Below are positions 4,144-21,008 of a stretch of DNA of 21,008 nt, piece by piece. How positions within the stretch are numbered: the first letter of the stretch is position 1; the number at the start of each line of letters is the position of its first letter. Where the stretch lies: the IMG/VR virus record IMGVR_UViG_2671180458_000004; one strand, written 5' to 3'. The translations under genes were made by a program, and so were the position numbers. This DNA comes from a virus (taxonomy: Duplodnaviria; Heunggongvirae; Uroviricota; Caudoviricetes). Under the pieces are notes generated by a model that made no database searches, was not told the DNA's origin, and was given only the letters and a program-made list of their open reading frames with translations.

Positions 4144-4170
4144 ATTGCCTCCGCATAAAGGATGAATATA

Positions 4171-4265
4171 AAATAAACAGGCGGTCAGTGTACGCTTAAC
4201 TGGTAAAGTCGGTGCCTGCCTCCGGGTGGATCATGTATGCGGGTTCGACCCCCGCCACTGACCGT
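4171..4265. other. Structured element in the F-G gap: long closing stem plus an inner hairpin with a tRNA T-arm-like loop; terminator-like on the minus strand
   Basis: Plus strand: GTCAGTG (4184-4190) pairs perfectly with CACTGAC (4256-4262); inner hairpin GCGGG-TTCGACC-CCCGC (4239-4255). Minus strand: the structure is followed by CTGTTTATTTTATATT. Confidence 0.35.
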
Positions 4266-14926: not shown

Positions 14927-15442
14927 TCACCCCCTGACTCGCTTTTCAGCAGCATAAAACTCATCAGACAGAATTTCGGTCATTTTCCGTTTTGCGGAAT
15001 CATCTTCGCACTGAAGGTAAATAACATCGTCAACGCAGAACCACTTCACGGGACCATGCAATATTGCTGAAAAGTCAATGCCCAGCCAGAACAACAGGGC
15101 ATCGGTTCTGGCATACGTGACGGGCGAATATTCACGCCACAGACTGTTAAGTTCGTCAGAGGCAACGCGCAGGGCTTTGGGAATACGTGATGTGCGCGGT
15201 GTGCAGCTCCAGCCATTCGACGCAGTCGGTTTTCGCCATAAGTCGCGATGAAAAGGATATTTGTCATCCATAAAGCGCAGCCCTTTAAAACAAAAGCCAC
15301 TGATACCGGATACAAATACCGACCGGCACGCAACATTCAGCACGGCCTCAAGGCGTTTTGCCTCATCCTTAACTTTCTGGCAGTCCTGCTGATATTTTTT
15401 CCACGCGGCCAGCGCGGAAGGGTTTGATGTTTTAAAGAACAT
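14927..15442 (-). CDS. Hypothetical protein (171 aa)
   Basis: Translationally coupled to the upstream gene (TAATG); no recognisable motif. Confidence 0.65.
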   Translation of the reverse strand: MFFKTSNPSALAAWKKYQQDCQKVKDEAKRLEAVLNVACRSVFVSGISGFCFKGLRFMDDKYPFHRDLWRKPTASNGWSCTPRTSRIPKALRVASDELNSLWREYSPVTYARTDALLFWLGIDFSAILHGPVKWFCVDDVIYLQCEDDSAKRKMTEILSDEFYAAEKRVRG

Positions 15443-15975
15443 TACGCCACCTCCGCAGATATCCCGGCAGGCGCGGCCGTCCGGTCAACAATCAGGTAAC
15501 GCAGAACACGCGCGGTGATATTCCAGCCGCTTAAACCGCAGATGATGACACCCAGGCGTATGTCGATATACGCCATCACAAACTGGGGCACGCCTTCTTT
15601 CATGGCCTGCTCATCAACTTCAGCCACCACATAAACGGTTTCGCAGGTCAGTACGCCCTGAGCAAATTCCCACGCCATCGACGGAATATCATGCCCCTCA
15701 ATCCACGGCAGGGACTTTCTGAAGCTGCACCACTGAACATCATCAGCCGCACATTCCTGGCTGCATTTGCGACGAACCGGCTGCACCGGGCGGGGACGCG
15801 GAATATCATAAAAACCGTTACATTCCGTCAGCACCCCGGCATCAACCGCATCACGCAGAAAATAAACCATCGAGGATGGCGGCATATTCATTTTTTCAGC
15901 CAGAACACCGCAGGTCAGACGTCCGTAAATACGCAGCCAGTTTTTAACCCCTTCAAGCACTTTTGCATCAATCAT
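15442..15975 (-). CDS. Hypothetical protein (177 aa), possible N-terminal winged-helix-like segment
   Basis: GGAGG about 8 nt upstream; stop and next start overlap as TAATG; the helix-turn-helix impression is by eye only. Confidence 0.65.
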   Translation of the reverse strand: MIDAKVLEGVKNWLRIYGRLTCGVLAEKMNMPPSSMVYFLRDAVDAGVLTECNGFYDIPRPRPVQPVRRKCSQECAADDVQWCSFRKSLPWIEGHDIPSMAWEFAQGVLTCETVYVVAEVDEQAMKEGVPQFVMAYIDIRLGVIICGLSGWNITARVLRYLIVDRTAAPAGISAEVA

Positions 15976-15978
15976 GAA

Positions 15979-16521
15979 TTATTCCTCCGTCAGCGCCACA
16001 TATTCAGAATGTTTAATTTCCTGGCATTCTTCAGGAATACACCCGTTTATTTCCCTGCCATAAGCGCCTACTTTAAACACCACGCACAGGGCATCACGGG
16101 AGAGTGACGGGGTCCACCAGGAGTCCGTGTTAAACATGGAGGGGATTCTCATTACCCCCAGCTTTTCACAGAGCCAGACAAGGAAATCAGGACGCTTTCT
16201 TAACTCGCGTTCAGCGGCTTCAACCATTGCGGCAATCGCCGGACCTTCAGGGCATGACTCATCAGGTCTGGCAATAAAGCACGGTCCGCCCCCGATAAAA
16301 GCCACATCATCGCGCTTACGCCAGCCCGCAGGCAGAGAACCAGAAAAATAAAACTCACTGATTACGTCCATGGCGAACGGCTTTAAGCGCAATCCGGCAG
16401 CGCCTGTATTTTTCAGTAATGCCCGAAGAATACTGTTGCGTAGCGGTAAAACAGTCTGTTGATATTTGGTGAAATATTTATTTGTCTGTACACGGTCTAA
16501 TTTGAAATAAAAATATGCCAT
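15979..16521 (-). CDS. Hypothetical protein (180 aa), accessory block
   Basis: AAGGAACAGGA RBS; first gene after the 97-bp gap downstream of gam; no family recognised. Confidence 0.65.
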   Translation of the reverse strand: MAYFYFKLDRVQTNKYFTKYQQTVLPLRNSILRALLKNTGAAGLRLKPFAMDVISEFYFSGSLPAGWRKRDDVAFIGGGPCFIARPDESCPEGPAIAAMVEAAERELRKRPDFLVWLCEKLGVMRIPSMFNTDSWWTPSLSRDALCVVFKVGAYGREINGCIPEECQEIKHSEYVALTEE

Positions 16522-16618
16522 ATTTCCTGTTCCTTATTTTCAGTTTACAGGCGCAGGCAGTCCCCTGACGCGAGCGCCATAATTAAAACGAAGTGATATT
16601 TAAAGATTTAATGCGGTG

Positions 16619-17149
16619 TTATTTATTCAGTCCGGCGTCCTGTTCAAAAGGCTCGACATGAAAACTTTCAGCACCTTTATTCACCTTAATACCAGCAACC
16701 CCTTTCACCGCATCCGGCTCCGCCAGGACAGCTTGCTTATTCACTTCCTCTTTCGTGCGGATGAAGCGCTCAAGCCCCATACGACGCAGCATTTCAATCA
16801 CACCTTCCACATCACGACTGACGCTGCATGATGGATTTCCCAGCCGCCATGACACCGTTCCGGTGGTCAGATTGGCAGTTTTGGTTTCGCCGCCGTTCGT
16901 CAGCTCATTGCGGTTGGTTTTACACCAGTCATGAATCCCCTTAAAAAGCACTTTGATTTCTTTTTTAAGGTTTTCAATCTGCGGCGTATAACGGGCGGTG
17001 ATTTCTGCCACTTCATCATTCATTGCCGTTTCCAGGCGCAGCGCCTCTCGCTGAATATCGCCCAGGGTGCGGATATCGCGGCTGACCTCTTCACGGGTCT
17101 GCGGTGCCGCCTCTGCTGCGGCCTTTAATTTTGTAACGCGTTTTGCCAT
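16619..17149 (-). CDS. gam: Host-nuclease inhibitor Gam (Mu Gam family, Ku-like DNA end-binding protein)
   Basis: 176 aa, the size of Mu Gam; sequence recalled as Gam family; AAGGAAAAA RBS upstream of the ATG. Confidence 0.85.
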   Translation of the reverse strand: MAKRVTKLKAAAEAAPQTREEVSRDIRTLGDIQREALRLETAMNDEVAEITARYTPQIENLKKEIKVLFKGIHDWCKTNRNELTNGGETKTANLTTGTVSWRLGNPSCSVSRDVEGVIEMLRRMGLERFIRTKEEVNKQAVLAEPDAVKGVAGIKVNKGAESFHVEPFEQDAGLNK

Positions 17150-17160
17150 TTTGTTTTTCC

Positions 17161-17454
17161 TTATTGCAATGTATCTGGTCCGTTCTGAACAGAACGGCGT
17201 TCAACGGAGCTGCTTACCCCCATGGCCTGCATGGAACCCTGTAGTTCATCTGTCAGAAACTGAATGATTGTGGGGCTGTGATATTTAAGAATTTGTGCAT
17301 AAACATCACAGGGTCCTGCCGGTCTGTTCTCTGTATCACGTTCGATTTTTACCGTGGCAGTAACCCCCTCCGTGATTTCCTTACTATCATTACCGGCTGG
17401 CTTTACTTCATGCATTACGTGGTCAAATTCAAAAATAACGCGTACTTTGCTCAT
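17161..17454 (-). CDS. Hypothetical early protein (about 97 aa), paralog of the adjacent gene
   Basis: Start moved to the second ATG (17454): it aligns with the paralog's N-terminus, has AGGGG about 8 nt upstream and avoids a 23-nt overlap. Confidence 0.6.
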   Translation of the reverse strand: MSKVRVIFEFDHVMHEVKPAGNDSKEITEGVTATVKIERDTENRPAGPCDVYAQILKYHSPTIIQFLTDELQGSMQAMGVSSSVERRSVQNGPDTLQ

Positions 17455-17458
17455 GGAA

Positions 17459-17731
17459 TTACCCCTGTTGATTAAATTCATTACCGTTAATAACCCCGGA
17501 ACTCATGTCCATATCTTTCATGAGCGCACTGGCTTTCATTGCCACAAGTTCAGCAAAGTCTCTGCTTTCCGCGAGCATAACCACCCCAAAAATCATGGCG
17601 GGTCCATCACCTTTCTGCTTTATCCCGGTTGAACGTATGTCCAGACTTACCCCCATGCGCACTGTTCCATCAGCGTTTTTATGGATAACGTGCTCCTTGT
17701 ATTCGAAAATAATGCGTACGACTTTACTCAT
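17459..17731 (-). CDS. Hypothetical early protein (90 aa), paralog of the adjacent gene
   Basis: N-terminus MSKVVRIIFEYKEHVIHK resembles MSKVRVIFEFDHVMHEVK of the 17161..17454 product; C-terminal MKDMDMSSGV versus MQAMGVSSSV. Confidence 0.6.
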   Translation of the reverse strand: MSKVVRIIFEYKEHVIHKNADGTVRMGVSLDIRSTGIKQKGDGPAMIFGVVMLAESRDFAELVAMKASALMKDMDMSSGVINGNEFNQQG

Positions 17732-18009
17732 CCTCTGGTCCTCGTTCTGTTTGGATAACTGACCCGGCGTCTGACCTCACGGCAGAACCGAATCATGGCA
17801 TTAAAGGCTTCTTCCTCCGTCACCGCTTCCGGTATCCCCGGAACCAGTAACTGCTCCTGTTCATCACGTCCATGACGCGCCATAACCTCAATCACATGCC
17901 GTACTGTGGCAGGCTTTCCGGCAACTATCGGCAATGCACCTTCCGGCAGGACGTAACCCAGTTCAATGAGACCGCTCGACCACGCCCACGCAATTAGATT
18001 TCGTTTCAC
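17728..18009 (-). CDS. Hypothetical early protein (93 aa), GTG start
   Basis: GTG at 18009 preceded by GGGAGGAG; stop overlaps the next start (ATGA). Confidence 0.55.
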   Translation of the reverse strand: MKRNLIAWAWSSGLIELGYVLPEGALPIVAGKPATVRHVIEVMARHGRDEQEQLLVPGIPEAVTEEEAFNAMIRFCREVRRRVSYPNRTRTRG

Positions 18010-18010
18010 C

Positions 18011-18265
18011 TCACTCCTCCCAGTAAACCGTGCAGCCGCTGATGCGGGTAGCCTTCACACGGCGGCGCAGGCCGTTGGTCTGTATGGTGATTTCAATTTC
18101 ACCGGTTCCCTTAACTTCGCTTACCGGCGGCGTGGTTTTCAGGGCATAACGTTGTGGGTAGCGTTTGCTGCGTTCCAGTACCGCACCGGCAAGTTCAGTC
18201 AGACGGCGTGCACTGTTCAGGGAGTCGAATAAATTCATTTTTTTACCGCAGGATTGCATATTCAT
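18011..18265 (-). CDS. Hypothetical early protein (about 84 aa)
   Basis: ORF 18011..18277; the internal ATG at 18265 is preferred because GAGGTG lies about 5 nt upstream; the stop is 1 nt before the next gene's start. Confidence 0.5.
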   Translation of the reverse strand: MNMQSCGKKMNLFDSLNSARRLTELAGAVLERSKRYPQRYALKTTPPVSEVKGTGEIEITIQTNGLRRRVKATRISGCTVYWEE

Positions 18266-18277
18266 ATAACACCTCAT

Positions 18278-18505
18278 TTAGCTGACTTGTTTCGCACCAA
18301 CAGAACGGCATATTCCGCTGTAAACTTCTGTCGCACCTTCGCGATCAAGTCCGGCAGATATCACCATTCGTGTGCGGTCATTAAATTCAAAAAGTAAATC
18401 GCCACATTCTTTATTTTCGGCCAGTGAAATCACCTTCACGTTATCGAAATTAACCAGGTAAAAGCGTCCGTAAATATCAGGAATATTAAATACCGCCATA
18501 ATCAC
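18278..18505 (-). CDS. Small early protein at the kil position of Mu (75 aa); function not established
   Basis: GTG at 18505 overlaps the B stop (GTGA); an in-frame ATG at 18499 with AGGTG upstream is an alternative start. Kil-like only by position and size. Confidence 0.5.
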   Translation of the reverse strand: MIMAVFNIPDIYGRFYLVNFDNVKVISLAENKECGDLLFEFNDRTRMVISAGLDREGATEVYSGICRSVGAKQVS

Positions 18506-19434
18506 ACCTGTGAGAGTAATTCAGGGTTGGTATAAACCTCTTTAAAGGCCGCATTAATATGTTTTTCTGTCAGCGCCGCGCCTTCACCGCTGGCGGTGAG
18601 CCACGCCTGGTTAAGCGTATGTGTCAGAACGCGTAACGCTCCCGGCTTTTCAGCGATAGCCTGCATGACGGCCAGCTCGGCCTCACCACTGATCCCCCAC
18701 GCCCTGGCAATGGCCAGCACATCCGCCTTTTTGGCCTTGCGAAGTTGTTTTGTACGGGCAAGACGGCTGAACAGGCGCGATAAATCATCAAAGGCGCGGC
18801 GTCCACCTTTAAACAATCCGCGCGGGTTACCAATAAGCACCATCCCGATCCCCGTGGCGTCCTGAATTGCCCGGAGTTGCTCCAGACCGTCAATACCAAG
18901 ATGATCCGCCTCATCCACAATCACCAGTCCACGCGTTCCCATCAGGCGACGGCGGATGGCGCGGGATAATGCCCCTTTGTTCGCGCGGGTGTAATCAATC
19001 CCCAGCGCATCGGCCAGCTCCAGCAGACACTCCGTGACGCTGGAGTGCGCGGGTGACAGGGTGATCATCCAGGTGTTTGGTTGCTCCTGGCAGTAATTAC
19101 GGGCAGTGGCCGTTTTACCCACACCCGGTACGCCCACAATAACGTTAATACAGCCCATCAGACGAACCGCCTGAAACAGTGTGCGCAGCTCCTGGACTGT
19201 CTGCGTTTCCACAAACTGCGGCGGTTCCGGCAGTGCGCTTTGTTTATTCCAGTTCTCATACCAGGAACGCAGGGAAGCAGCCACAGCAGCGTTATCGCCT
19301 TTATATTTTCCCTTACGGAAAGCCGATAATGTGCCGTCGGAAATTCCCGCCTCTCTGGCGATGGCATACTGCGTCAGTACGCCGCCATCAATAAGTTCAT
19401 CAATGGTCTTGATTACATCGTTAATATCAGTCAT
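18502..19434 (-). CDS. B: Mu B-type transposition target-DNA activator, AAA+ ATPase
   Basis: 310 aa; Walker A GVPGVGKT and Walker B-like LVIVDEADHL visible; N-terminal HTH-like segment; directly downstream of A; GAGG about 9 nt upstream of ATG. Confidence 0.92.
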   Translation of the reverse strand: MTDINDVIKTIDELIDGGVLTQYAIAREAGISDGTLSAFRKGKYKGDNAAVAASLRSWYENWNKQSALPEPPQFVETQTVQELRTLFQAVRLMGCINVIVGVPGVGKTATARNYCQEQPNTWMITLSPAHSSVTECLLELADALGIDYTRANKGALSRAIRRRLMGTRGLVIVDEADHLGIDGLEQLRAIQDATGIGMVLIGNPRGLFKGGRRAFDDLSRLFSRLARTKQLRKAKKADVLAIARAWGISGEAELAVMQAIAEKPGALRVLTHTLNQAWLTASGEGAALTEKHINAAFKEVYTNPELLSQV

Positions 19435-19469
19435 ATTATTAACCTCTCATTTGATACCTTGTTTAATCA

Positions 19470-19505
19470 AATAACCTGAGTCGCCGCTCGGGTTATTTTT
19501 TTATT
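19470..19505 (+). terminator. Terminator-like hairpin in the A-B gap, oriented for the plus strand (antisense to the genes)
   Basis: About 11-bp stem (19470-19480 with 19487-19497, one G-U) around loop TCGCCG, followed on the plus strand by TTTTTTTATTT; on the minus strand no U-tract follows. Confidence 0.4.
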
Positions 19506-21008
19506 TCAGGCCAGCGGGTCATTTTCTTTTAATTTCGCTTCCAGCAACTGCAATCCCCGCTGGAAATTACGCTCGTATTCTTCATCAGGCTCATCATCAA
19601 CGGCAGGTTGCTGAACGGCCACCGTATTACCTACCGGGCGATAGATGTTTTCCAGCCAGGGCTCCTGCGGCTTGTGCTCCAGCACGTTGACAACCTCATC
19701 CTCGGCATCACGGATTTTTTCCTCTGCGCGTTTACGCATGCCTTTAAGGCGTTGCTGCTGTTTGTAGTATTCCGCGCTAACCGGGAAGGCTTCGCGTTTA
19801 TTACCGTCCCATACCGCCTCGCAAATCACGCTGCCATCCAGGCGACGTACGGTAATTCGTTCGGCATCATGAATGTCATAGCTGATAAGCACCTTGCGGC
19901 CATGCTCATCACGCAGCTCGGGCGCGTAGTAAATATTATTCAGCCAGCGTATTTCACAGCGTCTTACAGGGCGTTCCACCATCGGCCGGAACATGTCCCG
20001 CAATTCCACATCGGACAGCCATTCAATTTCCGTGTCCTCTTCCGCCAGGCATTTTTTTCTGAACTCCGCCGGGCTGTAATGTTTACCGTTCGGCTTCATC
20101 GGTAATTCATCGTGCGGTCGGTTGTTGTACCACTCAACACCATCACGAATGGCATCAATCAGTTCAGACCAGGACGGTAAATCACGCATCGCTGACTGTT
20201 GCCGGGCGTTCAGCCGTTTGCCCTGTTGCAGGGCGGTAAATGCCGAGCGTAAATCGCGGTTGGTTTTGCGTAACGTCTCGCGATCTGCACCTTTCCCGAA
20301 ATAGGTGCGGTATTTACGGGCTATGCGCATCGGTAATGTGCGGTTAAGCCGTTCGATAATGCCTCGTCCCTGCGGATTACCGGCAATCCCGGTCGGGTGA
20401 TTAATCCCCAGTCGCGGCAGTATCCCCACAACCTCCTTATCCAGGATGTCGGCGGTTTCCCCGGAGCCGTTATCCGAGTAATACAGAAACGGTTTGCCGT
20501 GATGGCGAATGCCGTGCTGTATGGCACCGGCTACGGCGAAAACATTTTCAGCCAGGTCAAGGCTCCAGCCCACCACAAAGCGCGTGCCACCGTCGATAAC
20601 AAAGGTCACTTCCGGTGCAAATGGCCGACCGTGAACCGGGTGTGCGCATTTCAGCTTCATGCCGTGACCGTCACCAATCCAGACATAATTCACCGGCATT
20701 TTTGACCAGTCGCGGCGCGTGAATCCCTCAAGCTGGCGGTATTCACTGCCGGTCACCCGGCCTTTTTGTTTCACCACTTCCGGCAGTTTCTTCATTGCGC
20801 GGCGAATGGTGTCATAAGACGGCATGATATCGAGCATATAAGGCTCATCAGCGTGCCGGTGCTGCCATTCAGCGACAAAATCCTCGTAAGCCTCGGTCAT
20901 TGGTCGGCCGTTTGACTGGCGATACTGCGCCAGAAATTCGGGCAGCCAGTTAATATCTTCGGCTTTTATTTCCTGGCGCTTACCCGGTGCCAGTAAAAGC
21001 AGGCGTTC
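19506..21008 (-). CDS. A: Mu-type DDE transposase A, C-terminal portion (N-terminus lies beyond the window edge)
   Basis: 464-aa ORF 19506..20900; the same frame stays open with no stop from 20901 to 21008, so the listed Met is internal. Position immediately upstream of B. Family assignment from recalled similarity to MuA. Confidence 0.9.
   Translation of the reverse strand, partial: ERLLLLAPGKRQEIKAEDINWLPEFLAQYRQSNGRPMTEAYEDFVAEWQHRHADEPYMLDIMPSYDTIRRAMKKLPEVVKQKGRVTGSEYRQLEGFTRRDWSKMPVNYVWIGDGHGMKLKCAHPVHGRPFAPEVTFVIDGGTRFVVGWSLDLAENVFAVAGAIQHGIRHHGKPFLYYSDNGSGETADILDKEVVGILPRLGINHPTGIAGNPQGRGIIERLNRTLPMRIARKYRTYFGKGADRETLRKTNRDLRSAFTALQQGKRLNARQQSAMRDLPSWSELIDAIRDGVEWYNNRPHDELPMKPNGKHYSPAEFRKKCLAEEDTEIEWLSDVELRDMFRPMVERPVRRCEIRWLNNIYYAPELRDEHGRKVLISYDIHDAERITVRRLDGSVICEAVWDGNKREAFPVSAEYYKQQQRLKGMRKRAEEKIRDAEDEVVNVLEHKPQEPWLENIYRPVGNTVAVQQPAVDDEPDEEYERNFQRGLQLLEAKLKENDPLA

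Follow-up and report, generated by a model that had tools for sequence, protein, structure and literature searches.

A predicted antisense terminator between the transposition genes A and B of Mu-like prophages and a candidate small RNA over the B ribosome-binding site

Transposition of the Mu type is a textbook subject, and accounts of how it is controlled usually center on proteins (the repressor c, Ner, and ClpXP). At the junction between the transposase gene A and gene B, which encodes the ATPase that selects the transposition target, a prophage sequence of 21,008 nucleotides (the entire stretch analyzed here, hereafter the window) carries a hairpin and a run of T on the strand opposite both genes. 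Is an RNA made from this opposite strand, and if so, what would it do to the two genes between which it ends?

The window represents a Mu-like Escherichia coli prophage in which all genes are on the minus strand. The gap between A and B covers positions 19435-19505, that is, the 71 nt from the B start codon to the A stop codon. In E. coli records, A is annotated as "Mu transposase C-terminal domain-containing protein" and B, whose product is 47% identical to Mu B, as "AAA family ATPase." The same junction, an annotated Mu transposase followed by an AAA family ATPase, is present at 87-100% identity in 233 of 5,426 complete E. coli genomes (about 4%). In E. coli O157:H7 Sakai it belongs to prophage Sp18, with A as ECs_4945 and B as ECs_4946, and the Sakai annotation lists no feature in the gap between these two genes. 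A search of the literature found no antisense RNA or terminator described at any Mu-type A-B junction, and ECs4945 and ECs4946 are mentioned in no paper that it returned. The features considered here are collected in Table 1.

Table 1. Features at the A-B junction of the window, and stem sequences found at the same place in relatives
Feature	Positions	Strand	Basis or remark
Transposase gene A, 3' part (Mu A homologue; runs off the window)	19506-21008	-	ORF list and translation; stop TGA 19506-19508
Gene B (310-aa AAA+ ATPase, MuB homologue)	18502-19434	-	ORF list; start ATG 19432-19434
Shine-Dalgarno of B (GAGAGG on the gene strand)	19443-19448	-	Read from the sequence
Predicted -35, TTGATT, within B codons 7-9	19409-19414	+	PWM scans
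Predicted -10, CATATT 19432-19437 (17-nt spacer) or TATTAT 19434-19439 (19-nt spacer)	19432-19439	+	Consensus and PWM scans
Predicted cis-antisense RNA, ~60 nt (ends inferred)	19444-19504	+	From promoter and terminator positions
Hypervariable spacer, B Shine-Dalgarno to hairpin	19449-19468		5' single-stranded part of the predicted RNA
Predicted terminator hairpin (5' arm 19469-19481, loop 19482-19485, 3' arm 19486-19498)	19469-19498	+	Fold, consensus scan, conservation
T-run TTTTTTTATT, partly overlapping the 3' arm, up to the A stop codon	19496-19505	+	Predicted 3' end of the antisense transcript
Stem AATAACCTGAG..			Window, Citrobacter, Edwardsiella, L069, L140
Stem ACAGTCCG..			L064-L067
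Stem GCCATTCGG..			Sodalis, Symbiopectobacterium, L223
Stem GCGGCC..			L178, L228
Stem GCGGC..			L179
Stem GGTCAGG..			L182
Stem GCCTG..			L175

On the plus strand, AAATAACCTGAGT (19469-19481) and GCTCGGGTTATTT (19486-19498) pair across the loop CGCC to form a stem of 13 pairs, two of them G.U, where a preliminary description of this locus had estimated roughly 11 bp. Immediately 3' of the stem, the same strand reads TTTTATT(T) and reaches the A stop codon. Taken as a whole, the T-run consists of seven T, one A, and two more T, after which the A stop codon follows; the string TTTTTTTATTT, as this run was written initially, corresponds to 19496-19506. Both features by which an intrinsic terminator is recognized, a stable stem-loop containing G+C and a U-run directly 3' of the stem (UUUUUUUAUU), are found on the plus strand. 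Folded as plus-strand RNA, the gap has a free energy of -19.4 kcal/mol (z = -5.2), and none of 200 shuffled sequences was equally stable. The corresponding values for gene-strand RNA are -14.1 kcal/mol and z = -2.3; here a C.A mismatch interrupts the stem, and the sequence after it, GAUUAAAC, is not a U-run. Hairpin and T-run are best described as a predicted intrinsic (Rho-independent) terminator on the strand opposite the transposition genes.

A consensus scan for terminators lists the hairpin as a plus-strand terminator-like site. Such sites are no commoner in positions 15000-21008 than in shuffled sequence (7 versus 7.7), so the scan is no proof by itself, and the argument depends on related sequences. 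Another terminator-like site of the plus strand is located at 20748-20771, antisense within the A coding region, where GCCGGTCACCCGGC is followed by CTTTTTGTTT. The length of the T-run at the junction varies from 6 to 8 T among otherwise identical E. coli prophages (6 in Sakai, 7 in the window), probably as a result of homopolymer slippage.

Other elements that might place a stem at this position were considered and rejected. A plus-strand open reading frame at 19181-19474 (97 aa) has its stop in the hairpin arm and could have been a gene terminated there, but the frame ranges from 16 to 104 codons and is broken in relatives. The A-run and stem on the gene strand do not form a -1 programmed frameshift signal, since the A-run lies beyond the A stop codon and none of the three reading frames stays open through it; the A stop codon itself differs between lineages (TGA, TAA, or TAG). 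A dispersed repeat of the REP/MITE type is excluded by the distribution of the sequence: a 53-nt query containing only the hairpin and a 251-nt query spanning the junction each matched 277 places in 233 E. coli genomes, and all of the matches listed are at the end of a transposase gene.

Within E. coli, the hairpin is embedded in sequence that changes rapidly. Across six variants that are 87-96% identical over the junction, both stem arms and the T-run are unchanged, while the loop differs and the spacer between the hairpin and the Shine-Dalgarno sequence of B has been replaced, with insertions and deletions. At least five discrete spacer types occur among 44 E. coli-type loci. From the hairpin to the B start, identity between types is 56-92%, compared with 85-99% in the 250-300 nt of coding sequence on either side. 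Spacer length is about 20-35 nt across loci L002-L007 and L020-L056, whose A and B flanks are 85-99% identical, and one spacer type (L025, L002) contains a small inverted repeat of its own.

To extend this comparison beyond E. coli, we gathered relatives of B from genomes, viral contigs, and metagenomes and examined, in each of them, the sequence lying between the A stop codon and the B start. At least seven unrelated stem sequences were found directly after the A stop codon, with the A-run preceding the stem on the gene strand (Table 1). In the 8 nt 3' of the stem, the antisense strand has 4-8 U in 16 of 19 lineage representatives; the gene strand has 0-3 U in all 19. The T-tract on the plus strand and the lack of a U-tract on the gene strand, both already pointed out for the window, are borne out there, with the same polarity across lineages. 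A terminator working on the gene strand as well, in a bidirectional arrangement, was rejected on these counts and on the mismatch in its stem.

The hairpin is not universal. It is absent, and the gaps are short, in phage Mu and its close clade, in Rheinheimera and Brenneria prophages, and in several others. Hairpin-less Mu-like lineages share a motif, (C/A)nTTTAAA(C/T), located 5-10 nt after the A stop codon; its carriers are L001 (3320-3357), L013-L015, L144-L168, L174, L176, L186, which has a motif of this type in three copies, L226, and L227. In Mu, for example, it reads CGTTTAAAC. Two loci, L010 and L012, come from metagenome-assembled genomes of Sodalis. As many as 11 in-frame stops in the B homologue of L010 mark this prophage copy as decaying, yet its hairpin and T-run are perfect. 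In L011, the T-run is interrupted (CTTTTCTA).

The preliminary description had missed a conserved promoter-like site, TTGATT-17-CATATT, which the plus strand carries about 30 nt upstream of the hairpin. The CAT of its -10 element is the complement of the B start codon, which the -10 overlaps. By position weight matrix, the site scores 8.8 bits with CATATT and the 17-nt spacer and 9.3 bits with TATTAT and the 19-nt spacer. This score of about 9 bits is moderate, the -10 begins with C, and the start codon in any case dictates the first three bases of this element. The site ranks 7 to 9 among sites on both strands of the 21-kb window; counting it, four plus-strand scores, from three distinct sites, are at least 8.8. 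In a consensus scan of 15000-21008, the only promoter-like site is the one at 19412-19439 (+), against 6.1 expected in shuffled sequence. The predicted transcription start is a pyrimidine inside the anti-Shine-Dalgarno sequence. The highest-scoring sigma-70-like site of the entire window is TTGCCT-18-TAAAAT at 4145-4174 (+) in the F-G gap, with 11.0 bits.

Comparison across lineages lends weight to the promoter-like site. In 13 of 14 clade representatives, it scores highest or close to highest among the sites in the 340 nt preceding the hairpin. The TTG of the -35 is kept in all lineages of the Sp18 clade, as TTGATT, TTGAAA, TTGCTA, or TTGATA. The G of this TTG is complementary to the third base of B codon 8, a C in all 13 clade sequences even though the encoded residue varies (I, F, or S); among codons 2-25, this is the only third position that is invariant in the 13 sequences. 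A like layout recurs in distant lineages with unrelated B N-termini (TTGAAT-16-CATAAT in L182, TTGAAA-16-CATAAT in L175, and TTGCAA-16-CATAAT in L173). At the promoter position, 12 of 15 terminator-bearing lineages score 8.2-10.8, versus -0.4 to 6.5 in all 16 hairpin-less lineages, including phage Mu; these lineages are related, so the counts of co-occurrence are not independent. The several results on the promoter-like site are, however, mutually consistent.

With a promoter-like site upstream, what had looked like an isolated terminator becomes a probable antisense RNA gene of about 60 nt. We propose that the two elements together form a gene for a cis-antisense RNA, similar to sar and RNA-OUT and undescribed so far, that would cover the ribosome-binding site of B, and we put the probability of this reading at about one half. 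Computation on the sequences at hand shows a conserved structure with strand polarity and a promoter-like site that co-occurs with it. From these we infer that the promoter would fire, where the transcript would start and end, and how it would affect B.

In the proposed mechanism, the terminator would be the 3' end of a small antisense transcription unit. Transcription would start near 19444, within the complement of the B Shine-Dalgarno (19443-19448), and the overlap with the ribosome-binding site hinges on this predicted 5' end. Release at the terminator would then yield an RNA of about 60 nt whose 3' end falls just short of the A stop codon. The predicted RNA folds at -16.4 kcal/mol (z = -5.0), with its first ~20 nt unstructured and followed by the terminator hairpin and U-tail. 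Being fully complementary to the A-B intercistronic mRNA, it could pair with the ribosome-binding region of B and block B translation, and the pairing might also create a site for RNase III. Such a block would act at low levels of early transcription, for example in a lysogen. Once the prophage is induced, the RNA would be outnumbered, and its promoter would be occluded by strong early transcription.

A serious rival, and the more conservative reading, is that the terminator acts only as an insulator. It would keep stray antisense transcription, from weak or accidental promoters in B or beyond, out of A and out of the ner/operator/repressor region. Early transcription would in this way escape collisions, and A would stay free of double-stranded RNA; the promoter-like site would then be incidental and the short RNA functionless. 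In favor of insulation, conservation of the terminator extends further than that of the promoter: three of the 15 terminator-bearing lineages scored (L070, L178, and L179) and also L228 have a terminator but no convincing promoter at the B start. The T-run always abuts the A stop codon, and an antisense RNA ending there would never overlap A.

Published data sets from strain Sakai bear on the same choice. The list of Hfq-crosslinked RNAs (PMC4104026 supplement) contains no RNA in the A-B gap. The sole Hfq-bound small RNA that it gives for Sp18, EcOnc37, maps to NC_002695 5,077,340-5,077,410 (-), near the right end of the prophage and outside the window (PMC4104026). In the supplement of the RNase E CLASH study, a single hybrid read is antisense about 300 nt inside B. 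This read maps upstream of the candidate promoter and cannot derive from it; like the gap's absence from the Hfq list, it sits well with a terminator that serves as insulator. The supplement of a RIBO-seq study of intergenic small genes reports nothing in the A-B gap, and the papers searched yielded no Term-seq table covering the site. An Rfam scan of 18000-21008 with E <= 5 gave chance-level matches only (E of about 1-4, far below gathering scores).

Against insulation as the whole explanation stands the -35 element. A single synonymous change would abolish an accidental promoter, yet its G corresponds to the one invariant third position in 24 codons. The promoter-like site also tracks the presence of the terminator, there is no other good plus-strand promoter within the 340 nt upstream, and plus-strand terminator-like sites are not enriched elsewhere. 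On balance, we consider it possible but somewhat unlikely that the terminator is an insulator and nothing else. If it is, the locus would still offer an ordinary but cleanly documented antisense terminator.

Both the proposed antisense RNA and simple insulation assume that the hairpin works on the plus strand. It might instead act in the A-B mRNA, as the preliminary description had allowed. The A-rich run would then be an entry site for RNase E, and the hairpin either a 5' stem protecting the processed B mRNA or a 3' stabilizer of the A mRNA, so that the element would set the A:B ratio. The papBA operon provides a model for setting a ratio by processing in this way, and an AU-rich run beside a stem is typical of RNase E sites. 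A and B are required in different amounts, and the gene-strand RNA does still fold, if at z = -2.3. The variation in the stem speaks for the other strand. In nine sequences from the stem family to which the window belongs, we scored an identical set of 12 pairs on each strand in turn. On the antisense strand, 108 of 108 stem positions are in standard pairs, and variation at five pairs is limited to exchanges between Watson-Crick and G.U. The gene strand has 95 of 108 positions paired, and there all five variable pairs become mismatches. Since every G.U pair corresponds to a C.A mismatch on the opposite strand, and all five changes favor the strand with the U-run, an RNA made from the plus strand is indicated. 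No double compensatory changes were found in these nine sequences; covariation in a wider sense is seen only as whole-stem replacement between families.

The same preference extends over longer distances. From E. coli to Edwardsiella, the gene strand keeps its C.A mismatch, and in 15 of 19 lineage representatives the antisense RNA folds more stably than the gene-strand RNA. The run beside the stem, moreover, matches a terminator U-run on the other strand exactly in length and position. We therefore hold a role in the A-B mRNA to be improbable. Of the two functions originally suggested for the hairpin, the structure in the A-B mRNA is disfavored by a mismatch kept over long divergence and by variable pairs that all break on the gene strand, while a terminator that stops antisense transcription before A fits all of the comparative evidence, with the U-run and the G.U pairs confined to the antisense strand. 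The basic observation of a plus-strand terminator-like hairpin in the A-B gap, antisense to the transposition genes, is upheld by its fold, its conserved arms, and its polarity. A DNA-level palindrome (a protein-binding site or cruciform) or a neutral remnant without present function, to which the fact that phage Mu works without the hairpin might point, is very improbable, given stems that differ wholly between lineages while the one-sided T-run is kept, arms that are invariant beside a hypervariable spacer, and a strand-specific tolerance of G.U that would not be expected of a symmetric DNA site.

Returning to the candidate antisense RNA, the hypervariable spacer coincides with its predicted 5' single-stranded part. 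One might speculate that this 5' segment sets type specificity, with the resident prophage silencing B translation from its own leaky transcripts and from incoming phages of the same type, but not from those of other types. The specificity of the c4 RNAs of phages P1 and P7 offers a comparison. We regard this extension as doubtful. If true, a type-specific antisense RNA would provide an RNA layer of both transposition control and superinfection immunity in a large Mu-like clade of Enterobacterales.

The simpler proposal would itself be of consequence. If it is correct, a conserved antisense promoter-terminator unit over the ribosome-binding site adds an RNA layer of control to the B ATPase. 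It would do so in Sp18-type prophages, and hence in about 4% of complete E. coli genomes, as well as in relatives in Citrobacter, Edwardsiella, and insect symbionts, and it would parallel RNA-OUT of IS10 and sar of P22.

Phage Mu (AF083977) has the same gene order and proteins as the window, but its A-B gap is only 38 nt, is AT-rich, and has neither the hairpin nor the promoter-like site (score, -0.4). The element belongs to the Sp18-type clade and to some other Mu-like clades, not to Mu itself.

Among known small RNAs, the anti-sRNAs AsxR and AgvB of O157 prophages, which are 51-60 nt long, combine a conserved 3' part with a variable 5' part (Tree et al. 2014, PMC4104026), much as the predicted RNA would combine a conserved hairpin with a hypervariable 5' region. 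They differ in being Hfq bound, trans acting, and encoded by lambdoid prophages, and their Hfq list does not include an RNA from the A-B gap. OOP of phage lambda is a 77-nt antisense RNA that ends at an intrinsic terminator and promotes RNase III-dependent cleavage of the sense mRNA (PMC5415839). Its overlap, however, is with the 3' end of cII; the predicted RNA would instead cover a ribosome-binding site.

P22 sar (immI, arc-ant) resembles the predicted RNA in being a small antisense RNA in a phage intercistronic region that is complementary to the ribosome-binding site of the downstream gene. Its promoter is reportedly at the start of that downstream gene, and Liao et al. are said to have found in 1987 a size of 68-69 nt. 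sar blocks translation of the downstream gene via its ribosome-binding site (PMC7968456). The two have no sequence relation (Rfam gave no match), and the target of the predicted RNA would be a transposition ATPase, whereas that of sar is an antirepressor.

As summarized in PMC7968456 from Ma & Simons (1990), RNA-OUT of IS10/Tn10 is a cis-antisense RNA of ~70 nt whose promoter is inside the 5' end of the transposition gene and which blocks ribosome binding. The Rfam scan of 18000-21008 revealed no homology to RNA-OUT. The transposase mRNA that RNA-OUT overlaps at its 5' end is monocistronic, whereas the predicted RNA would cover an internal intercistronic junction and target the accessory ATPase B instead of the transposase A. 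The two would be alike in holding transposition functions down at basal expression.
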